A DNA stretch of 64,000 nt from Candidatus Aminicenantales bacterium (GCA_049515535.1 JBEKTZ010000008.1:104173-168172); one strand, 5' to 3'; positions 24,280 through 29,986 are shown, numbered from the stretch's first letter. The notes: a model not told the origin generated them from the sequence alone. A program made the numbers and translations.

Positions 24280-24400
24280 CTTTTATCATAAGAAATAAGG
24301 AGACACAATACCTATTTCCTTACACTTATTTCCCCATGCGCGCCCCGAATTCAAGGAACCGGGAATCATGCCACGCTATGGAATTAGTGATAAAATGCGT

Positions 24401-24427
24401 GTCAACGAAAGGGCCTTTCCGTTCGTT
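24401..24427 (+). promoter_or_regulatory. Possible ECF-type autoregulatory promoter (GTCAAC-N17-CGTT) upstream of the sigma factor gene
   Basis: AAC-N17-CGT spacing resembles ECF promoters. It lies ~20 nt upstream of the ATG within an AT-rich island. Confidence 0.3.
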
Positions 24428-24446
24428 TTCATAGATAGACAGGATC

Positions 24447-25022
24447 ATGGAAGAAGAAAAGTCCATCCAACTGGCCAGGGAAGGGGATCCCGGAGCCTTA
24501 CGCGCCCTTTATGACGGGCATCGACAGCGGGTTTTGTCACTGGCCTATCGGTATCTCCGAAACCGGGCGGACGCCGAAGATGTCCTGCAGGAAACGTTCA
24601 TCAAGGCTTATCATTCCCTGTCCCGCTACAACCCGGATAAAGGCCTGAATTTCTCCTGCTGGCTCAACAAGATCTGCATAAACGCCAGTATCGACGCCCT
24701 GCGGAGAAACAGGGTCAAGGGGATGCCCGTCACTGCCGTCGGGGACGTGGCCGATATGCCGGACCCATCGAACTCTTCCGATCCCGAGCGGACGGCGCGG
24801 AATAGGGAAATTCGCGAACGGATCGATAGCGCTTTGAACGACTTATCCCCAAAGCAGCGCATGATTTTCACTCTGCGGCACTATCAGGAATACAGCATCC
24901 GGGAGATCGCGGAACACATGGAATCGACCGAGGGAAGCATAAAAAAACATCTTTTTCGGGCCGTCGAGACGCTCAAAAAACGGCTCAAACGGTTCGTCAT
25001 GGAGGACGGCTATGAAGTGTGA
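24447..25022 (+). CDS. RNA polymerase sigma-70 factor, ECF subfamily
   Basis: Region 2 (DVLQETFIKAY) and region 4 (SIREIAEHMESTEGSIKKHLFRA) signatures. ~190 aa. Confidence 0.85.
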   Translation: MEEEKSIQLAREGDPGALRALYDGHRQRVLSLAYRYLRNRADAEDVLQETFIKAYHSLSRYNPDKGLNFSCWLNKICINASIDALRRNRVKGMPVTAVGDVADMPDPSNSSDPERTARNREIRERIDSALNDLSPKQRMIFTLRHYQEYSIREIAEHMESTEGSIKKHLFRAVETLKKRLKRFVMEDGYEV

Positions 25023-25743
25023 CACAGCTAAAGGCCTGATCATTCTCGATCTCTACGGCGAGCTCGGAGACGCCGAAAAGGCCGGACTCCACGATCACAT
25101 CCAGCGCTGCCGCGCCTGTTCGGAAGAGCTGGCCCTGACAAAAAAAGTCTTCAGCCTGCTCGATGACAACCGGCCCGCCGAAGCGCCGGCCGCGGATTGG
25201 GAAAAAGCGTGGCGCGGCATCCAGGGCGGCCTGTCGCGCCCGCCCTCGAACCGCCGTTTCTTCGGTCTGCCCGGCCGGCGGTGGGTCTTCGCCGGATCGG
25301 TCCTCACCCTGGTCTTGATCGCCGGGATCCTCATCGGAAAATACGGCCTCGCTCCTTCTTCCCCGCCGGCCGCCATCGCGGCCCGGACGACTCCGGATTC
25401 CTCCTCTTCCCCCAACGGCATCCGGCCGGCCTTCGCCGCGCACCTCGACGACCTCAAGCCGATCCTTGTCGATTACGCCCATTTCGAACCGGGCGAGAAG
25501 GCCGGGCAAAGGATCGCCGTCGACGAAAATGTTCTCCGCGGACTCATTCTTCAAAACCTTCTCTTGAAAAGAAAACTCGCGGAAAAGGACCCGGCAGCGG
25601 CCGATCTTTTAGACGATATCGACGTCGTCCTCAGGGAAATCACGAACCAGGGAGCGCAAGACGCTCAATCCCCGGCCCAGATCAGAGATCTGATCGAGCG
25701 GCGGGATATCCTTTTTAAATTGGAAATCTTGAAAAAGATCTAG
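25012..25743 (+). CDS. Putative anti-sigma factor (zinc-finger, single TM)
   Basis: 11-nt overlap with the sigma gene. N-terminal HxxxCxxC (HDHIQRCRAC). One TM helix. Confidence 0.6.
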   Translation: MKCDTAKGLIILDLYGELGDAEKAGLHDHIQRCRACSEELALTKKVFSLLDDNRPAEAPAADWEKAWRGIQGGLSRPPSNRRFFGLPGRRWVFAGSVLTLVLIAGILIGKYGLAPSSPPAAIAARTTPDSSSSPNGIRPAFAAHLDDLKPILVDYAHFEPGEKAGQRIAVDENVLRGLILQNLLLKRKLAEKDPAAADLLDDIDVVLREITNQGAQDAQSPAQIRDLIERRDILFKLEILKKI

Positions 25744-25754
25744 GAGGAATACCC

Positions 25755-27005
25755 ATGAAAACCATGAAAACGATCTTCGTCATCCTTGCTTTCGGCCTGA
25801 TCTTCGGAAACATGGCCTCGGCGCAGGTCAAAGACGCCGACAAGACAAAGGAAACGATCGACAGAGCCAAGGAACAGATCCAGCTAGCCTATGACCAGGC
25901 CAAAAAAGCCATCAGCCTCAAGGACTGGAAAACGGCCATCGAAGCCTGCCGGAAGATCGCGGCCGAAAACGGCAAAAGCGGCTATTACGGAGAATCCCTC
26001 TACTGGCTCGGCTACAGCATGGACCGATTCGCCAATTCGCTCGAGGACATGAAACTGCAGTTCAAGAATAAGGAAATGGCGATCGAAGAGCTGAATGTGC
26101 TTCTCCAAAAGATGCCGGAAAGTACATGGGCCAGGGACGCCAAGCTCCTTCGGCTCGAGATCGCCGAAGGACTGGCCAACAAGGGCCTGTCCGGTTACCA
26201 GAAATACATCGACGAAAGTCTGGCGGGCGGCGTTGCCGAAGGCGTGAGTGGCGGCGTGGCGGGCAGCGGCTGGAACCAGAAAAAGACCGACGCCGATACG
26301 AAACTGTACTGGAACCAGAAAAAGACCGACCCCGATACGGAACTGAAGCTCGTCGCTTTGGATGCGCTCATGCAGATGGACAGAGAGAAAGCCTTCCCGA
26401 TCCTCGAGAAAATGGTCCGGGAGGAGCAAAAACCGGAACTCAAGGAAAAGGCGCTTTTCGTCCTCAGCCAGTCTAGAGATCCAAAGGTCGTTCCGATCCT
26501 CGCCGAGCTGGCCACGAAAGATCCCTCGGACAAAATCCGGCAGACGGCCGTTTTTTGGCTCGGGCAGAGGCACGACGACGAGAGCCTGGCCGCCTTGTTG
26601 AAGATCTACGACGCCGCGGCCGCCGACTCGAAGCTCAAAGAGAACCTGATCATGGGCTTTGCTCAGAGCAAGAACGAGAAGGCCGGGGCCAAGATAATAG
26701 AAATCGCTAAAAACGACAAAGACCCCATAGCCCGGGAACGCGCCGTCTTCTGGCTGTCGCAGAGAAAGGGAGATGAGGTCCTGGCCGTCCTCCTGGATGT
26801 CTATTCTCAAACGGACAACGCGAAGCTCAAACAACAGGTCATCTTTTCCATCGCCCAGAACAAGAGCCCCAAGGCCGTCCAGACGCTGATCGACATCGCC
26901 CGCAAGGAAAAAGACTTTGAAATGAAAAAACAGATCGTCTTCTGGCTCGGCCAATCGAAGAGCGAGGAGGCGATCAAGTTCCTCAAGGAAATCCTGGATA
27001 AATGA
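25755..27005 (+). CDS. Secreted HEAT-repeat protein (PBS-lyase-like repeats)
   Basis: Signal peptide. Reiterated ~31-aa repeats with an A(V/I)FWLGQ core. Contains an in-frame 39-bp tandem duplication. Confidence 0.6.
   Translation: MKTMKTIFVILAFGLIFGNMASAQVKDADKTKETIDRAKEQIQLAYDQAKKAISLKDWKTAIEACRKIAAENGKSGYYGESLYWLGYSMDRFANSLEDMKLQFKNKEMAIEELNVLLQKMPESTWARDAKLLRLEIAEGLANKGLSGYQKYIDESLAGGVAEGVSGGVAGSGWNQKKTDADTKLYWNQKKTDPDTELKLVALDALMQMDREKAFPILEKMVREEQKPELKEKALFVLSQSRDPKVVPILAELATKDPSDKIRQTAVFWLGQRHDDESLAALLKIYDAAAADSKLKENLIMGFAQSKNEKAGAKIIEIAKNDKDPIARERAVFWLSQRKGDEVLAVLLDVYSQTDNAKLKQQVIFSIAQNKSPKAVQTLIDIARKEKDFEMKKQIVFWLGQSKSEEAIKFLKEILDK
26270..26347 (+). repeat. Perfect-frame 39-bp tandem duplication (2 copies) inside the HEAT-repeat gene, encoding WNQKKTD(A/P)DT(K/E)L(Y/K)
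   Basis: CTGGAACCAGAAAAAGACCGAC.CCGATACG.AACTG repeated head-to-tail with 3 mismatches. Confidence 0.7.
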
Positions 27006-27023
27006 CGGGATGGACGGGCAGCA

Positions 27024-28160
27024 GTGAAAAACATCACGTCAAAAGCCATCTGGAGTGGAGCGATCGCGGGATCGCTCCTTTTTATCACCCTGTTCGGCGC
27101 CGTTTTAGCGGCGGAGGAAAAACCGGCGTTTCTGAGCGGCAAGGTCCGGGACTTGAGCGGACAAAGCGTCTCTCTCGACAAAAAGCTGGAATCGGCCCGG
27201 ACGGAATTCCAGAAATCCGGCGGCGGAAAGATCTATTTCGCGGCCTATGAGTTCCTGAGCCGGCACAAGATCCGCAGGGGAAACTCCTATGGCGCCGGAG
27301 AGGGGTATGTCGTCAGCCCCAAAGAGTCCAAGATCAAGATCGAGGAAAAAGGCCGTGGATGGAACCAGGTCGGAACGGAAACGGACACAAAAGACGCTTC
27401 CTCGCCGGCCGCCCTTCTCATCCTCTACGACGCCTCCAAGAACGGGGAGATCCTGGACGTCGCTATCCTCGATAACGACCAGACCTATGATTTTGCCGAG
27501 GCCGCCGTGTTTTGGCTCGGCCGGGCGGATAACACGGAGAGCGTTTCGTTCCTGGAAAGATCCTTCGACGCGGCCAAAGGCGCATCATCGCTTCAAAAAA
27601 ACGTGATCTTCGCCGTCGGCTGCCATCAGGATCCCCGGGCGTATGCGTTCCTCAAGAAAATCGCCATCGGATCGGACGACAACAAAATCAGAGAAAGCGC
27701 CATTTTCTGGCTGGGAAATTACGGCGACGCGAAAAGCCTGGCCGATCTCAAAGACATCTTCGCCAAGGAAAAAAGCGATTCCGTCAAAAAGCAGATCGTT
27801 TTCGCCCTGCAGTTGAGCCGGCAAAAAGAAGCCGTTGAGGAGCTGATCCGGATCGCCAGACAGGACGCGAGTCTGGACGTCCGCAAGCAAGCCGTTTTCT
27901 GGCTGGGGCAAAAGGCTTCCGCCGAAAGCATCAAGGCGCTCAAGGACATCGTCGGAGAGCCGGACGAGGACACCAAATTGAAGGACCAGGCGGTCTTCGC
28001 CATCAGCCAGCTCCCCAAAGACAAATCCGTGCCGATGTTGATCGACATCGCCAAGTCGAACAAGACCGCGTCCATCCGGAAGAACGCGATCTTCTGGCTG
28101 GGGCAAAGCGGCGATCCCGCCGCGCTGAAATTCTTCGAGGAGATCCTCCTGAAGAAGTAG
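27024..28160 (+). CDS. Secreted HEAT-repeat protein, paralog of the preceding gene
   Basis: Signal/TM segment followed by the same A(V/I)FWLGQ repeat architecture. Confidence 0.6.
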   Translation: MKNITSKAIWSGAIAGSLLFITLFGAVLAAEEKPAFLSGKVRDLSGQSVSLDKKLESARTEFQKSGGGKIYFAAYEFLSRHKIRRGNSYGAGEGYVVSPKESKIKIEEKGRGWNQVGTETDTKDASSPAALLILYDASKNGEILDVAILDNDQTYDFAEAAVFWLGRADNTESVSFLERSFDAAKGASSLQKNVIFAVGCHQDPRAYAFLKKIAIGSDDNKIRESAIFWLGNYGDAKSLADLKDIFAKEKSDSVKKQIVFALQLSRQKEAVEELIRIARQDASLDVRKQAVFWLGQKASAESIKALKDIVGEPDEDTKLKDQAVFAISQLPKDKSVPMLIDIAKSNKTASIRKNAIFWLGQSGDPAALKFFEEILLKK

Positions 28161-28165
28161 GGAAA

Positions 28166-29986
28166 TCAAAAATCTTTGACGGCGGCGATGATGTGACGGG
28201 CGCTGATCCCGTATCGATCCATCAACTCGTCCGGCTTGCCCGAACGGGGAAGTTCCCGGACGCAGAGGTGCTTGATCCGGGCGCGGCCCGCCAGGGCCGA
28301 GGCCACGGCCTCGCCCAATCCGCCGGCCTCGAAATGATCCTCGACGACGACGGCCCGGCTTCCCGTTTCGGCCACGTTTTTCAAGATGGTCTCGCCATCC
28401 AGCGGCTTGACGGAATAGGCATCCACGACGCGGATCCCGAGGCCCTCTTTCTTCAATTCTTCATAAGCCTTGAGCGATTCGAAGACCGTGATGCCGGCGG
28501 CGATCACCGTCGCCTTGTCGTTCTCGCTCTTCCTCAGCACTTTCGACCCTCCGATCGGGAAGGCATCATCCTTGGCATAGAGCAGGGGCACCGCCGGCCG
28601 CGTCGTGCGGATATAACACATGCCGCGATGCCGGGCGGCGGCCTCGACGCACGCTTCCGCCGCGTACGCATCGCTCGGATAGAGGACGACGCAACCGGGG
28701 ATGGGGCGAAAAATCGCCAGGTCCTCGAGACCCATCTGGGACGGTCCGTCCTCACCGATGCTCACTCCGACATGCGATCCGCAGATCTTGATGTTCGAGA
28801 GCGAATACGCCGCCATCCGCGCCTGGTCGTGGGCGCGGCTCAGGAACGCCGCGAACGTCGCCATGAACGGGATGTATCCCTTGGCCGCGAATCCCATGCC
28901 CATGCCGACCATGTTCTGTTCGGCGATGAACGACTGGAACGACCGCCTGGGGAACGCCTCGAAAAACTTGTCGGCATATGTCGAGTTTTTGACGTCGCCG
29001 TCGATGACGACGATGCCGCCATGAGTTTTGCCGAGCGCCAGAAGAGCATTGCCGTAAGCCAGCCGCGTCGCGGTCTTGTCTTTGTAGGCGGTTCTTTCGA
29101 AAGTCATATTCCTCTCGAACTCCGGCCGCGCCGTTTTTATGGGAGGACGGACGAAGGACGCGGCGTCTACCTCGGGGAGCGGGCCGATTTCTTCGAGCGC
29201 CGCCCGCAACTCATCTTCTTTCAACGGCTTGCCATGCCATCCGTTCTTGTTTTCCGTGAACGAAACGCCTTTGCCTTTGATGGTCTTGGCCAGAATGACG
29301 GTCGGCTTACCGCCCCTGCCGATCTTCTTTAGCGCGTCCAGAATCGCCCTGATTTTGTGACCGTCAACGCGCAGGACATCCCATCCGAACGCCCGGAATT
29401 TTCCGGCGAAAGCCGCCACGTCGTACTCGTGCATGGTCGCCTCGGACTGGCCGAGCCGGTTGATATCGACGATGGCGCACAAATTGTTGAGCTTAAAAAA
29501 AGAAGCGGCGTTCGCCGCTTCCCAGACCGATCCTTCCGCGCACTCGCCGTCGCCCATGACGACGAAGACGCGGCCCGGCGACGCGCCGAGCTTCATGGCC
29601 GCGGCCATGCCCGCGCCGACCGAAAGGCCCTGGCCGAGCGAGCCCGTGGCCGCCTTGATCCAGGTCATCCGCGGCGTCGGGTGGCCTTCCAGATCGCTCG
29701 TGAGCTTCCGCAACTCCATGAGGTCCCGGAGAGGGATGATGCCCGCCTCGGCGTAGGCCGCCCATAAAATGGGCGCCGCGTGCCCCTTGGAGAGAATGAG
29801 TTCGTCGTTTCCCCAATCCTCGGGATCCTTGGGATTGAAGCGCATCTCGCCGAAAAACAGGCAGGACATGATCTCGGCCAGCGACAGGCAGGTCGTCGGG
29901 TGGCCGGAGCCCGCTTTGGTCGTCATCATCAGGGAATGGATACGAAGTTTCGTGGCGATCTTTTCCAGGGCGGCGATGCGGTTCAT
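28166..29986 (-). CDS. tkt: Transketolase (short, single-polypeptide form)
   Basis: N-terminal TPP-binding region (GHP..., GDG.., EG) and C-terminal pyrimidine-binding/C-terminal domains. 606 aa. Confidence 0.85.
   Translation of the reverse strand: MNRIAALEKIATKLRIHSLMMTTKAGSGHPTTCLSLAEIMSCLFFGEMRFNPKDPEDWGNDELILSKGHAAPILWAAYAEAGIIPLRDLMELRKLTSDLEGHPTPRMTWIKAATGSLGQGLSVGAGMAAAMKLGASPGRVFVVMGDGECAEGSVWEAANAASFFKLNNLCAIVDINRLGQSEATMHEYDVAAFAGKFRAFGWDVLRVDGHKIRAILDALKKIGRGGKPTVILAKTIKGKGVSFTENKNGWHGKPLKEDELRAALEEIGPLPEVDAASFVRPPIKTARPEFERNMTFERTAYKDKTATRLAYGNALLALGKTHGGIVVIDGDVKNSTYADKFFEAFPRRSFQSFIAEQNMVGMGMGFAAKGYIPFMATFAAFLSRAHDQARMAAYSLSNIKICGSHVGVSIGEDGPSQMGLEDLAIFRPIPGCVVLYPSDAYAAEACVEAAARHRGMCYIRTTRPAVPLLYAKDDAFPIGGSKVLRKSENDKATVIAAGITVFESLKAYEELKKEGLGIRVVDAYSVKPLDGETILKNVAETGSRAVVVEDHFEAGGLGEAVASALAGRARIKHLCVRELPRSGKPDELMDRYGISARHIIAAVKDF

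Follow-up and report, generated by a model that had tools for sequence, protein, structure and literature searches.

A four-gene operon for an ECF sigma factor, a ZAS-type anti-sigma factor and two exported HEAT-repeat paralogues, predicted from sequence in Acidobacteriota and Gemmatimonadota

Four co-directional ORFs on the + strand of a 64-kb stretch of Candidatus Aminicenantales DNA (the window, meaning the whole stretch, with positions counted from its first letter) encode an ECF sigma factor, a ZAS anti-sigma factor and two exported HEAT-repeat paralogues, between positions 24447 and 28160. On sequence grounds they appear to form a self-contained, self-regulated operon, found in the same order in two phyla and located behind a single conserved candidate promoter of the ECF type, TGTCAAC-N17-CGT. 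The ECF sigma factor and its RsiW-like ZAS membrane anti-sigma factor are probably co-transcribed, and the two paralogous exported alpha-solenoid proteins are predicted to be products of the same operon. No literature on this four-gene module was found, and the main text describing the ECF groups makes no mention of HEAT or Gemmatimonadetes.

The ORF coordinates give, from the sigma gene to the last HEAT gene (HEAT-B), an 11-nt overlap followed by gaps of 11 nt and 18 nt, exactly the spacing read in the first-pass annotation. The overlap of the anti-sigma start with the sigma stop by 11 nt is also the commonest junction in related loci, and the junctions kept across loci are -11, +10 to +12 and -4. 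In the window, a GGAGG is contained within the 11-nt gap between the anti-sigma gene and the first HEAT gene (HEAT-A). The downstream neighbour of HEAT-B, a transketolase-like ORF (28166-29986), is convergent, so that the operon presumably ends at HEAT-B.

A predicted autoregulatory ECF-type promoter, identified by conservation, is located on the + strand at 24400-24430, and is composed of a -35 element TGTCAAC (24400-24406), a 17-nt spacer and a -10 element CGTTTT (24424-24429). Its end is separated by 17 nt from the sigma ATG, and the sigma gene probably uses an AGGA at about 24440 as its ribosome-binding site. Of 57 related loci, 42 carry the sequence TGTCAACgAA-N17-CGT(T/A)T 5' of the sigma gene, and the spacer measures 17 nt in 41 of these. 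The strict pattern occurs once per locus in 36 loci, each time upstream of the sigma gene, and no second match was found within the roughly 13-kb loci. In the 64-kb window the site at 24400-24430 is the sole exact match; its PWM score is 29.4, and the next-best site, which falls within a coding ORF, scores 15.6. The site is probably autoregulatory. ECF factors typically have a co-transcribed cognate anti-sigma gene and an autoregulatory promoter whose -35 element is of the AAC type and whose -10 element is of the CGT type, and both features are predicted here.

The sigma factor (24447-25022, + strand, 191 aa) belongs to group 4 of the sigma-70 family, the ECF group, whose members contain the sigma-2 and sigma-4 domains only and measure about 170-220 aa. 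Sigma70_r2 (residues 21-89, 2.9e-22) and Sigma70_r4_2 (residues 123-176, 2e-16) are its only domains, and the sigma70-ECF family TIGR02937 is matched at 1.6e-37 (128.7 bits, cut-off 42.9). No NCBIfam equivalog cut-off is reached (107.8 bits vs 209). The closest solved structures are those of SigW from Bacillus subtilis (5wuq_A, 2.8e-18), of an ECF factor named sigma-H (6in7) and of RpoE (1or7).

The anti-sigma factor (25012-25743, + strand, 243 aa) is a single-pass protein, recognised by its zinc motif, its AF2 model and its transmembrane helix. Residues 1-74 form a cytoplasmic ZAS-type domain, residues 92-111 (about 25285-25344) a hydrophobic helix taken as transmembrane, and residues 137-242 (about 25420-25737) a helical C-domain predicted to be periplasmic. 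The HxxxCxxC motif that characterizes Class I, or ZAS, factors is found at residues 29-36, within the N-terminal helical domain; across 44 homologues the three residues of H29-x3-C33-x2-C36 never vary, and at least 90% of the homologues keep C3. In the AF2 model, helices 3-14, 20-32, 34-52 and 63-74 span residues 3-74, with a pLDDT above 90 over residues 1-50, followed by the transmembrane helix and the helical C-domain. The match to zf-HC2 is weak (19 bits vs a cut-off of 22.2), as are the other anti-sigma matches. The top structural match in the PDB is RsiW (5wuq_D), with a TMt of 0.68 over 62 residues and a weak E-value of 0.38; the C-domain has no sequence relative in Pfam or PDB. At a threshold of E <= 1e-10 the family comprises 1,435 cluster representatives, almost all of them full-length matches (230-290 aa). 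Together, the sigma domains, TIGR02937, the zinc motif and the transmembrane helix bear out the ECF sigma/anti-sigma pair of the first-pass annotation.

In HEAT-A (25755-27005, + strand, 416 aa) a signal peptide (residues 1-23, ASA/Q) is followed by a TPR domain of the BamD/YfiO/CpoB type (about 25-156), a linker of low complexity (about 153-194) and an array of about 7 PBS-type HEAT units (195-416). HEAT_2 is matched at 1.3e-29 (102.7 bits, cut-off 27.7) and HEAT_PBS at 3.2e-13 (49.2 bits, cut-off 20.9), and the homologues recovered exceed 1,000. PF13525 (YfiO) was matched by the N-domain of every one of 8 orthologues, at 9e-11 in the best case; the protein of the window scores 19.8 bits as a whole and 23.9 bits for the N-domain alone, where the cut-off is 25. 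When a profile of this domain was compared with the PDB, BamD (2.6e-4), YbgF (4e-3) and CpoB (0.017) were matched. BamD/YfiO and CpoB/YbgF, which are likewise periplasmic, are thus its best PDB and Pfam matches, but the window protein scores below or near the Pfam threshold and is an orthologue of neither. BamD/YfiO proteins are recognised by a lipobox Cys, about five TPRs and an above-threshold HMM score; HEAT-A is not a BamD orthologue, because its signal peptide, as read from the sequence, lacks the lipobox Cys and its domain is only about 130 aa long, instead of about 245, besides being fused to a HEAT array.

In HEAT-B (27024-28160, + strand, 378 aa, GTG start) residues 1-31 form a signal peptide or N-terminal anchor and residues 37-167 a beta-rich N-domain; in the AF2 model of the protein (pLDDT 87.9, pTM 0.82) the array (170-375) contains 13 helices, corresponding to about 6.5-7 PBS-type HEAT units. 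HEAT_2 is matched at 7.7e-26 (90.7 bits, cut-off 27.7) and HEAT_PBS at 52.5 bits (cut-off 20.9). The N-domain matches no family and has no sequence relative in Pfam or PDB, its profile giving no PDB match at E <= 10. By Foldseek against the PDB, the HEAT part matches alphaRep/PBS-HEAT designs (E about 1e-7), deoxyhypusine hydroxylase and CpcE/CpcF. Both proteins show the features of the PBS-lyase type of HEAT repeat, namely tandem helix-turn-helix units of about 31 aa and scores above threshold for PF03130 and PF13646. They are 32% identical over 267 aa (E = 7e-38) and colinear throughout the array, and the FWLG(Q) motif was read 3 times in the translation of HEAT-A and 4 times in that of HEAT-B, at a spacing of about 64 aa. 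Signal-peptide-like segments are kept at the N-terminus in 13 of 13 HEAT-A and 40 of 44 HEAT-B homologues. The two paralogous secreted HEAT-repeat proteins announced in the first reading of the DNA are confirmed by the HEAT_2 and HEAT_PBS matches, the identity and these segments.

For the three non-sigma products (the anti-sigma C-domain, HEAT-A and HEAT-B) a periplasmic location is thus predicted. As neither the anti-sigma C-domain nor the N-domain of HEAT-B belongs to a known family, the operon shows no conventional sensor domain. The HEAT and TPR folds, which are protein-binding scaffolds, contain no catalytic motifs.

The conservation of the gene order was analyzed in 60 genome loci retrieved by using HEAT-A, where sigma, anti-sigma, HEAT-A and HEAT-B follow one another nearly everywhere the contig permits. 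By phmmer, the same order was found in 48 of 69 loci; the loci without the full order mostly correspond to contig ends or to anti-sigma factors too diverged for phmmer, and the residual exceptions are a few loci with internal deletions and those lacking HEAT-B. The order is also found in 6 sampled, more distant metagenome or MAG contigs, and a search from a distant member of the anti-sigma family produced one contig with a sigma gene upstream and a gene for a signal peptide and TPR protein downstream. Carriers within the Acidobacteriota include Aminicenantes, Thermoanaerobaculia, Bryobacteraceae, Polarisedimenticolia and Acidobacteriaceae. Gemmatimonadota show the same gene order, with shorter versions of HEAT-B (248-258 aa) that lack the N-domain. 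HEAT-B is absent from L043, L046, L049 and the L071 subfamily, and is therefore not indispensable; L071 itself is a three-gene form, composed of sigma, anti-sigma and a 311-aa TPR-HEAT protein. No fifth conserved gene was found beside the operon, and the flanking genes vary between loci. In L066 and L070 the anti-sigma C-domain and HEAT-A appear to be paired without a sigma gene; this pairing was discarded as a sign of physical partnership, because it is located beside an N-run and a contig end. The search for HEAT paralogues next to ECF pairs in other genomes, proposed together with the original observation, has thus given a positive answer, and a lack of conserved linkage is decisively contradicted, because the order is kept across Acidobacteriota and Gemmatimonadota. 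The linkage of the HEAT genes to the ECF pair is not accidental, and a functional tie is supported by these sequence comparisons.

HEAT-A contains a tandem in-frame duplication of 39 bp (26270-26347, + strand), encoding WNQKKTDADTKLY / WNQKKTDPDTELK. TRF assigns it a period of 39 at 26270-26345, with 1.9 copies and a score of 138. The two copies (26270-26308 and 26309-26347) are identical at 36 of 39 bases and encode residues 173-185 and 186-198, so that the duplication in a HEAT gene described in the first-pass annotation is real. It had been called fresh, which needs qualification: L001, at about 93% nucleotide identity, shares the duplication, with the identical 3 inter-copy differences and an additional 6-bp insertion, and the site falls in the linker, outside the repeat array. 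L072 (95-97% nucleotide identity) has exactly one copy, and the duplication is missing from orthologues whose identity is 66% or lower. The site lies within the TPR-HEAT linker, where the first HEAT helix has its N-cap; the linker is hypervariable, ranging from 12 to 93 aa among orthologues.

The same duplication had been taken to show a repeat array that is actively expanding or may be phase-variable; on this explanation HEAT-A would be a variable surface or periplasmic protein whose array expands and contracts. The length polymorphism anticipated at 26270-26347 is indeed seen among close relatives, L072 having 1 copy, the window 2, and L001 2 with 6 bp added, and further short tandem repeats occur in orthologue linkers (GYRTESDQG twice in L020). 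Nevertheless, the unit is 13 aa long and sits in the linker, vs a HEAT unit of about 31 aa, and no other tandem repeat was found by TRF within the two HEAT genes. The array itself is not actively expanding, because it is colinear between HEAT-A and HEAT-B. Only two copies are present, with 3 differences that are fixed and common to genomes about 93% identical. Contingency loci are characterized by a hypermutable tract and on/off switching through a frameshift or altered promoter spacing: here no homopolymer or short-unit tract is found, the 39-bp unit is intragenic and divisible by 3, and all variants, for a total of 3 alleles, are in frame. Phase variation finds no support, because an in-frame, two-copy change in a linker provides no on/off switch. 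The expanding-array explanation is largely refuted, and we regard it as extremely improbable; the floppy TPR-HEAT tether tolerates the duplication, which is an indel due to slippage or recombination and has no regulatory role.

The organization of the operon recalls that of RpoE-RseA-RseB(-RseC) and AlgU-MucA-MucB (ECF02), where an autoregulated ECF sigma gene is likewise followed, in one operon, by a single-pass anti-sigma factor and by one or more exported proteins; HEAT-A and HEAT-B are proposed here to gate the anti-sigma factor from the periplasm as RseB and MucB do. Unlike RseA, the anti-sigma factor described here is of the ZAS type (HxxxCxxC); unlike RseB/MucB, HEAT-A and HEAT-B are TPR/HEAT solenoids and do not belong to the MucB_RseB family, which is not found among their Pfam and NCBIfam matches at E <= 1. 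The carrier phyla also differ, and the sigma-E promoter is of another type than TGTCAAC-N17-CGT. SigW-RsiW of B. subtilis (ECF30) provides the closest structures for both regulators, a single-pass anti-sigma factor with a ZAS motif and a promoter of similar AAC...CGT logic, the SigW consensus being TGAAAC-N16-CGTA. The extracytoplasmic domain of RsiW is, in contrast, unrelated, the sigma score reaches no equivalog cut-off, and the sigW operon is not known to contain HEAT or TPR genes downstream. The comparison with ExoR-ExoS/ChvI is a functional analogy only, with no homology claimed: there, as is proposed here, the activity of a membrane transducer is set by an exported alpha-solenoid repeat protein that binds its periplasmic part, but the repeats are Sel1 instead of HEAT/TPR, and the transducer belongs to a two-component system rather than to a sigma/anti-sigma pair.

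The module may be an autonomous, positively autoregulated ECF operon for envelope signalling, with the HEAT proteins as periplasmic co-sensors together with the anti-sigma C-domain, after the model of RseB or ExoR; we assign this leading reading about an even chance. HEAT-A (TPR, flexible tether and about 7 HEAT units) and HEAT-B (about 7 HEAT units behind a novel beta domain) would assemble in the periplasm with the anti-sigma C-domain and serve the sensor as the part that binds a ligand or partner. They could shield the anti-sigma factor from proteolysis or expose it to it, in the way of RseB on RseA or of the Sel1-repeat protein ExoR on ExoS; since sigma would induce them, they would also reset the system, by negative feedback. 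The single conserved promoter per locus, the conserved order, the kept junctions and the self-contained character of the unit favour this co-sensor role, as do the lack of a conventional sensor domain, the protein-binding folds and the predicted periplasmic location of all three partners. Against it, co-transcription suits an effector role equally well, HEAT-B is dispensable in some loci, and its N-domain is missing from the short Gemmatimonadota versions.

The HEAT proteins could instead be the output of the system, as envelope-protective scaffolds or chaperone-like factors induced on sigma release, whose TPR might dock, like BamD or CpoB, on the outer-membrane assembly or on the Tol-Pal/peptidoglycan machinery. 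Their genes lie within the autoregulated operon, so that the proteins would rise with sigma activity, and are its only visible local targets, since no other strong PWM or strict-pattern site is found nearby (15.6 vs 29.4 in the window, no second strict match in the roughly 13-kb loci), although such targets were visible only within 64 kb. Effectors are encoded in other ECF operons, for example sigV-rsiV-oatA, and the N-domain of HEAT-A resembles BamD, YfiO, YbgF and CpoB; this likeness is, however, weak for the window protein (23.9 bits vs 25), which is no BamD orthologue for the reasons given above, and the conservation data fit a regulatory role too. We consider an effector role possible, if on the unlikely side. 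An envelope-stress scaffold had already been suggested on first reading: an envelope-related role is plausible, because the three non-sigma products have periplasmic parts and HEAT-A a BamD/CpoB-type TPR. The phage or metal shield suggested beside it finds no support, as PADLOC gave only a generic HEAT-ARM match and no DOHH-like His-Glu metal motifs were seen by eye in the HEAT translations. Very unlikely, in our judgement, is a CpcE/CpcF-like heterodimer, attaching or removing a cofactor on a periplasmic client. Two adjacent paralogous proteins of the same repeat type (PF03130 and PF13646 significant) as CpcE/CpcF, NblB and alphaRep would suit it, as would the CpcE/CpcF structure listed by Foldseek (5n3u, E about 5e-4) and weak NCBIfam matches to NblB and a 'putative lyase'; but the latter are far under the family cut-offs (NblB 29.6 and 39.4 bits vs 300, PRK09687 20.6 and 36.1 vs 275), so that neither protein is a member, and generic designed HEAT repeats are the top structural matches. 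HEAT-A and HEAT-B are, moreover, exported and ECF-linked, carry extra N-domains and occur in non-phototrophic lineages, and no linked genes for bilins or other cofactors are seen at the loci.

Within the co-sensor reading, the anti-sigma C-domain, HEAT-A and HEAT-B might constitute a hitherto unrecognised periplasmic sensor complex that reports the state of outer-membrane or cell-wall assembly, through the BamD/CpoB-like TPR, to the ECF sigma factor; this more specific proposal is speculative and rather doubtful. If true, the complex would fill in Acidobacteriota and Gemmatimonadota the role that RseA/RseB-sigma-E plays in Proteobacteria, and it would put to use two domain families without Pfam or PDB relatives, the helical anti-sigma ectodomain and the beta domain of HEAT-B.

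The four genes lie on the + strand exactly where the first-pass annotation had placed them: the ECF sigma factor (24447-25022), the anti-sigma factor (25012-25743) and two exported HEAT-repeat proteins, HEAT-A (25755-27005) and HEAT-B (27024-28160), with an 11-nt overlap followed by gaps of 11 nt and 18 nt. The gene at 28166-29986 is convergent, so that the unit ends with HEAT-B. The annotated sigma / anti-sigma pair is borne out by domain content. The sigma factor (191 aa) contains Sigma70_r2 and r4_2 domains only, and matches TIGR02937 at 1.6e-37. The single-pass, ZAS-type anti-sigma factor (243 aa) carries the zinc motif H29-x3-C33-x2-C36, invariant in 44 homologues, followed by a transmembrane helix (92-111) and a helical C-terminal domain. 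The nearest structure to its N-terminal domain is RsiW (Foldseek TMt 0.68, but with a poor E of 0.38), and the sigma / anti-sigma core resembles the SigW/RsiW pair. No NCBIfam equivalog cut-off was reached by the sigma factor. Across the 64-kb window, whose GC content is 53-63% and whose nearest relatives are Candidatus Aminicenantes MAGs, neither Rfam families at the gathering threshold nor tRNA genes were found, and a terminator scan produced counts at shuffle level.

HEAT-A (416 aa) and HEAT-B (378 aa) are PBS-type HEAT-repeat proteins with conserved signal-peptide-like N-termini and, as had been proposed, clearly paralogous: they align colinearly over the entire array, with 32% identity over 267 aa (E = 7e-38). 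In HEAT-A the signal peptide ends in ASA, before Q, without a lipobox. It is followed by a TPR domain of about 130 aa, matching PF13525 (YfiO/BamD) in 8 of 8 tested orthologues (best 9e-11), whose profile finds BamD, YbgF and CpoB as best PDB matches (E = 2.6e-4 to 0.017). A low-complexity linker, the composition and length variation of which suggest disorder, then leads to about seven HEAT units. The AF2 model of HEAT-B (pLDDT 87.9, pTM 0.82) starts with a disordered signal segment at residues 1-31, followed by a beta-rich domain modelled with confidence (37-167) and thirteen HEAT helices. Searches of Pfam and PDB returned no sequence relatives for this beta domain or for the anti-sigma ectodomain. 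The HEAT arrays also give sub-threshold ERAP1_C matches and Foldseek matches to M1 aminopeptidase C-domains, and M1-family aminopeptidase genes adjoin the cassette in two unrelated loci from other genomes (L066:2735-4317 and L069:5130-8769); the link is probably generic solenoid similarity plus coincidence. Assignment to a defence system was rejected, PADLOC yielding just a generic HEAT-ARM_XIII repeat match.

Conservation of the cassette was evaluated by scanning one genome per GTDB species with a degenerate pattern; the ORFs of the 60 loci obtained were then searched by phmmer with the four window proteins. The order sigma / anti-sigma / HEAT-A / HEAT-B, on a single strand, is kept in essentially all sufficiently long loci, from many Aminicenantes, Thermoanaerobaculia, Bryobacteraceae, Polarisedimenticolia, Acidobacteriaceae and 'Candidatus Angelobacter'. 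The cassette was also recognised, by gene calling near more remote homologues of HEAT-A, in Gemmatimonadota and another three metagenomic lineages. The linkage of HEAT genes to ECF pairs thus extends to other genomes, in Acidobacteriota and Gemmatimonadota alike. To limit ascertainment bias, a distantly related anti-sigma family member was used as a second starting point: on its short contig, a sigma-4 fragment lies upstream, and a gene encoding a signal peptide and a TPR domain, matching the HEAT-A N-domain profile at 7e-11, lies downstream. Judged by sequence matches, the anti-sigma family is large and coherent, with 1,435 cluster representatives at E <= 1e-10, nearly all of them full-length matches of 230-290 aa.

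Spacing is similarly constrained. The 11-nt overlap is the commonest value at the sigma / anti-sigma junction, the gap between anti-sigma and HEAT-A measures 10-12 nt (in the window it includes GGAGG), and a 4-nt overlap is frequent between HEAT-A and HEAT-B. HEAT-B is missing from the three-gene form in locus L071, as well as from L043, L046 and L049. No fifth conserved gene was found among the related loci, where flanking genes vary. An apparent pairing of the anti-sigma TM/periplasmic part with HEAT-A without a sigma gene, in L066 and L070, once seemed to favour physical partnership; it was rejected as an artefact, because an N-run (L066) or the contig end (L070) lies immediately upstream.

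Three co-assembled MAG contigs (L015:3975-5543, L025:5457-5990 and L047:5219-5985) keep promoter and HEAT genes, and are internally deleted in the sigma / anti-sigma part: sigma residues 1-125 are fused straight into HEAT-A in L015, about 800 nt, from about sigma codon 11 to anti-sigma codon 88, are missing from L025 relative to L044, and sigma residues 1-81 are followed by anti-sigma residues 29-243 in L047. These may be either real population variants or assembly artefacts. Many MAG records with an Aminicenantes-type cassette (L003, L009, L010, L012, L020 and others) are titled 'uncultured Eubacteriales bacterium', 'uncultured Clostridia bacterium' or 'uncultured Actinomycetes bacterium'. 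Such labels look like placeholders or errors, and should therefore not be used to define the phyletic range of the cassette.

Upstream regions were aligned by eye, and a PWM was built afterwards. A motif composed of TGTCAACgAA, a 17-nt spacer and CGT(T/A)T was found upstream of sigma in 42 of 57 loci, with the 17-nt spacing in all but one of them (41/42); its -35 block starts at a median of about 49 nt before the sigma start codon. More distant Acidobacteriota carry CTAACC-N16-CGTCTAA in its place. Both types share the AAC...CGT architecture, which is typical of ECF promoters. In 36 loci the strict pattern has exactly one match each, in every case immediately before the sigma gene; the window likewise has a single match, at 24401-24427. 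The next-best PWM site in the window (34028, minus strand) scores 15.6, about half of the top value, and was taken as a chance match because it falls inside a 352-aa coding ORF. Since the promoter is conserved, occurs once per locus and has no comparable second site in the window, the operon is very probably autoregulated, and would itself be the only local target of the predicted promoter type.

Other elements were seen near the promoter. Just upstream of it, many related loci (L005, L002, L019, L045, L046, L048, L049 and L061) carry an inverted repeat with GC caps, GGGGGACAC...GTGTCCCCC, between A-rich and T-rich runs, with two copies in L002; a degenerate equivalent, aaggagacacaatacctatttcc, is found at about 24290-24325 of the window. 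Either a bidirectional terminator or a REP/MITE-like element is conceivable. An extended -10-like element of sigma-70 type, TGATAAAAT, occupies 24388-24396, 3 nt upstream of the ECF -35 block; it is also present in L001, L042 and L002, with variants in L005 (CTAAAAT) and L004 (TGTTACAAT). A TAnnnT hexamer is found at this position in 14 of 42 loci vs about 10% expected. The element may be a housekeeping promoter for basal expression, placed in tandem with that of the ECF type. Within the 17-nt spacer, the window carries a palindrome, GAAAGGGCCTTTC (24407-24419), near-identical to GAAAGGGCTTTTC in L001 and absent from other loci.

The 39-bp in-frame tandem duplication reported in HEAT-A, at 26270-26347, was recovered by TRF with a score of 138, the copies sharing 36 of 39 bases. 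The 13-residue copies (173-185 and 186-198) fall within the linker between TPR domain and HEAT array. The second of them N-caps the first HEAT helix with a conserved K-K-x-D-P-[DE] motif, which is present only once in orthologues. Length polymorphism at the site was observed in two close relatives. L001, about 92-93% identical to the window at the nucleotide level over a syntenic stretch of about 8.5 kb (93.6% within the HEAT-A segment), also has two copies, with the same three differences between them as in the window; in addition, 6 bp are inserted and the Gly/Val tract is shorter by 12 bp. In L072, 95-97% identical, there is exactly one copy, and the Gly/Val tract is again shorter. As L072 is nearer to the window than L001, the simplest history is that the duplication arose in the common ancestor and that one copy was later precisely lost from L072; alternatively, populations may have exchanged the segment by recombination.

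Orthologue linkers range from 12 to 93 aa and are filled with short tandem repeats (GGVE, LEGLE, EEPE), so that the duplication site is a tolerated indel hotspot in the tether. Independent duplications in other linkers (GYRTESDQG twice in L020, EEPEEPEEPE in L037, the near-repeat EEPEESEEPE in L018) support a general hotspot. A motif G-W-N-Q-x-x-T-x-x-D-T-K is common to both paralogues in the window's lineage: GWNQKKTDADTK (26268-26306) at residues 172-184 of the HEAT-A linker, and GWNQVGTETDTK (27354-27392) at residues 111-123 of HEAT-B, in a low-pLDDT loop of the beta domain. The resemblance is lineage-specific, since the Trp is missing in 13 of the 14 other HEAT-B orthologues compared; it is possibly a coincidence or a small conversion tract.

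Operon structure, conserved promoter motif, scaffold-type folds and predicted periplasmic parts of all three non-sigma products are established, and the readings of the system differ in what HEAT-A and HEAT-B would do. With about even confidence, we propose that both bind the ectodomain of the anti-sigma factor, for which they would do the sensing and gating in the manner of RseB or ExoR, in a system working like an RpoE-RseA-RseB-type operon; being sigma-induced, they would also provide feedback. By membership tests, the HEAT/TPR proteins fall outside the RseB, BamD and CpcE/F families. The main rival, in which the two proteins are envelope effectors induced by the sigma factor, fits the data equally well, and is held more tentatively. 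A CpcE/F-like lyase pair is unlikely. The HEAT part of HEAT-B matches CpcE/CpcF in structure, together with designed alphaRep proteins and deoxyhypusine hydroxylase; no catalytic or metal-binding motifs were seen when the translated sequences were read by eye. The duplication had been read as the sign of a repeat array that is actively expanding or may be phase-variable. All alleles are in frame, which makes phase variation unlikely, and the HEAT array itself is unchanged, the duplication being confined to the linker; the idea of an expanding array was accordingly dropped.

In the literature searched (HEAT repeat/PBS lyase with ECF/anti-sigma), no paper linked HEAT-repeat proteins to ECF systems: specific combinations led only to an unrelated Solibacter genome paper, and a broad search to heat-shock papers only. 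The main text of the ECF classification paper mentions neither HEAT nor Gemmatimonadetes; the genomic context may already be listed in the ECF Hub. The cassette is real, widespread and uncharacterised, and its mechanism is of a sort to be expected from an ECF system.

Pairs of ECF sigma and anti-sigma factors are a major signalling device of bacteria. To our knowledge, only a minority of them have an established input, and least of all those of Acidobacteriota, Aminicenantes and Gemmatimonadota, which are abundant but barely cultured. The duplication matters less, as an illustration of an inter-domain tether acting as indel hotspot. The module as a whole is large, HEAT-A having over 1,000 homologues and the anti-sigma factor about 1,400 cluster representatives (E <= 1e-10). 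Being compact, with a sharply defined predicted promoter, it is directly testable in a cultured carrier, and its two unclassified periplasmic domains are targets for structural studies. A co-sensor role of the HEAT/TPR proteins would represent a new coupling of envelope state to transcription; as effectors, they would define a new class of periplasmic scaffold.
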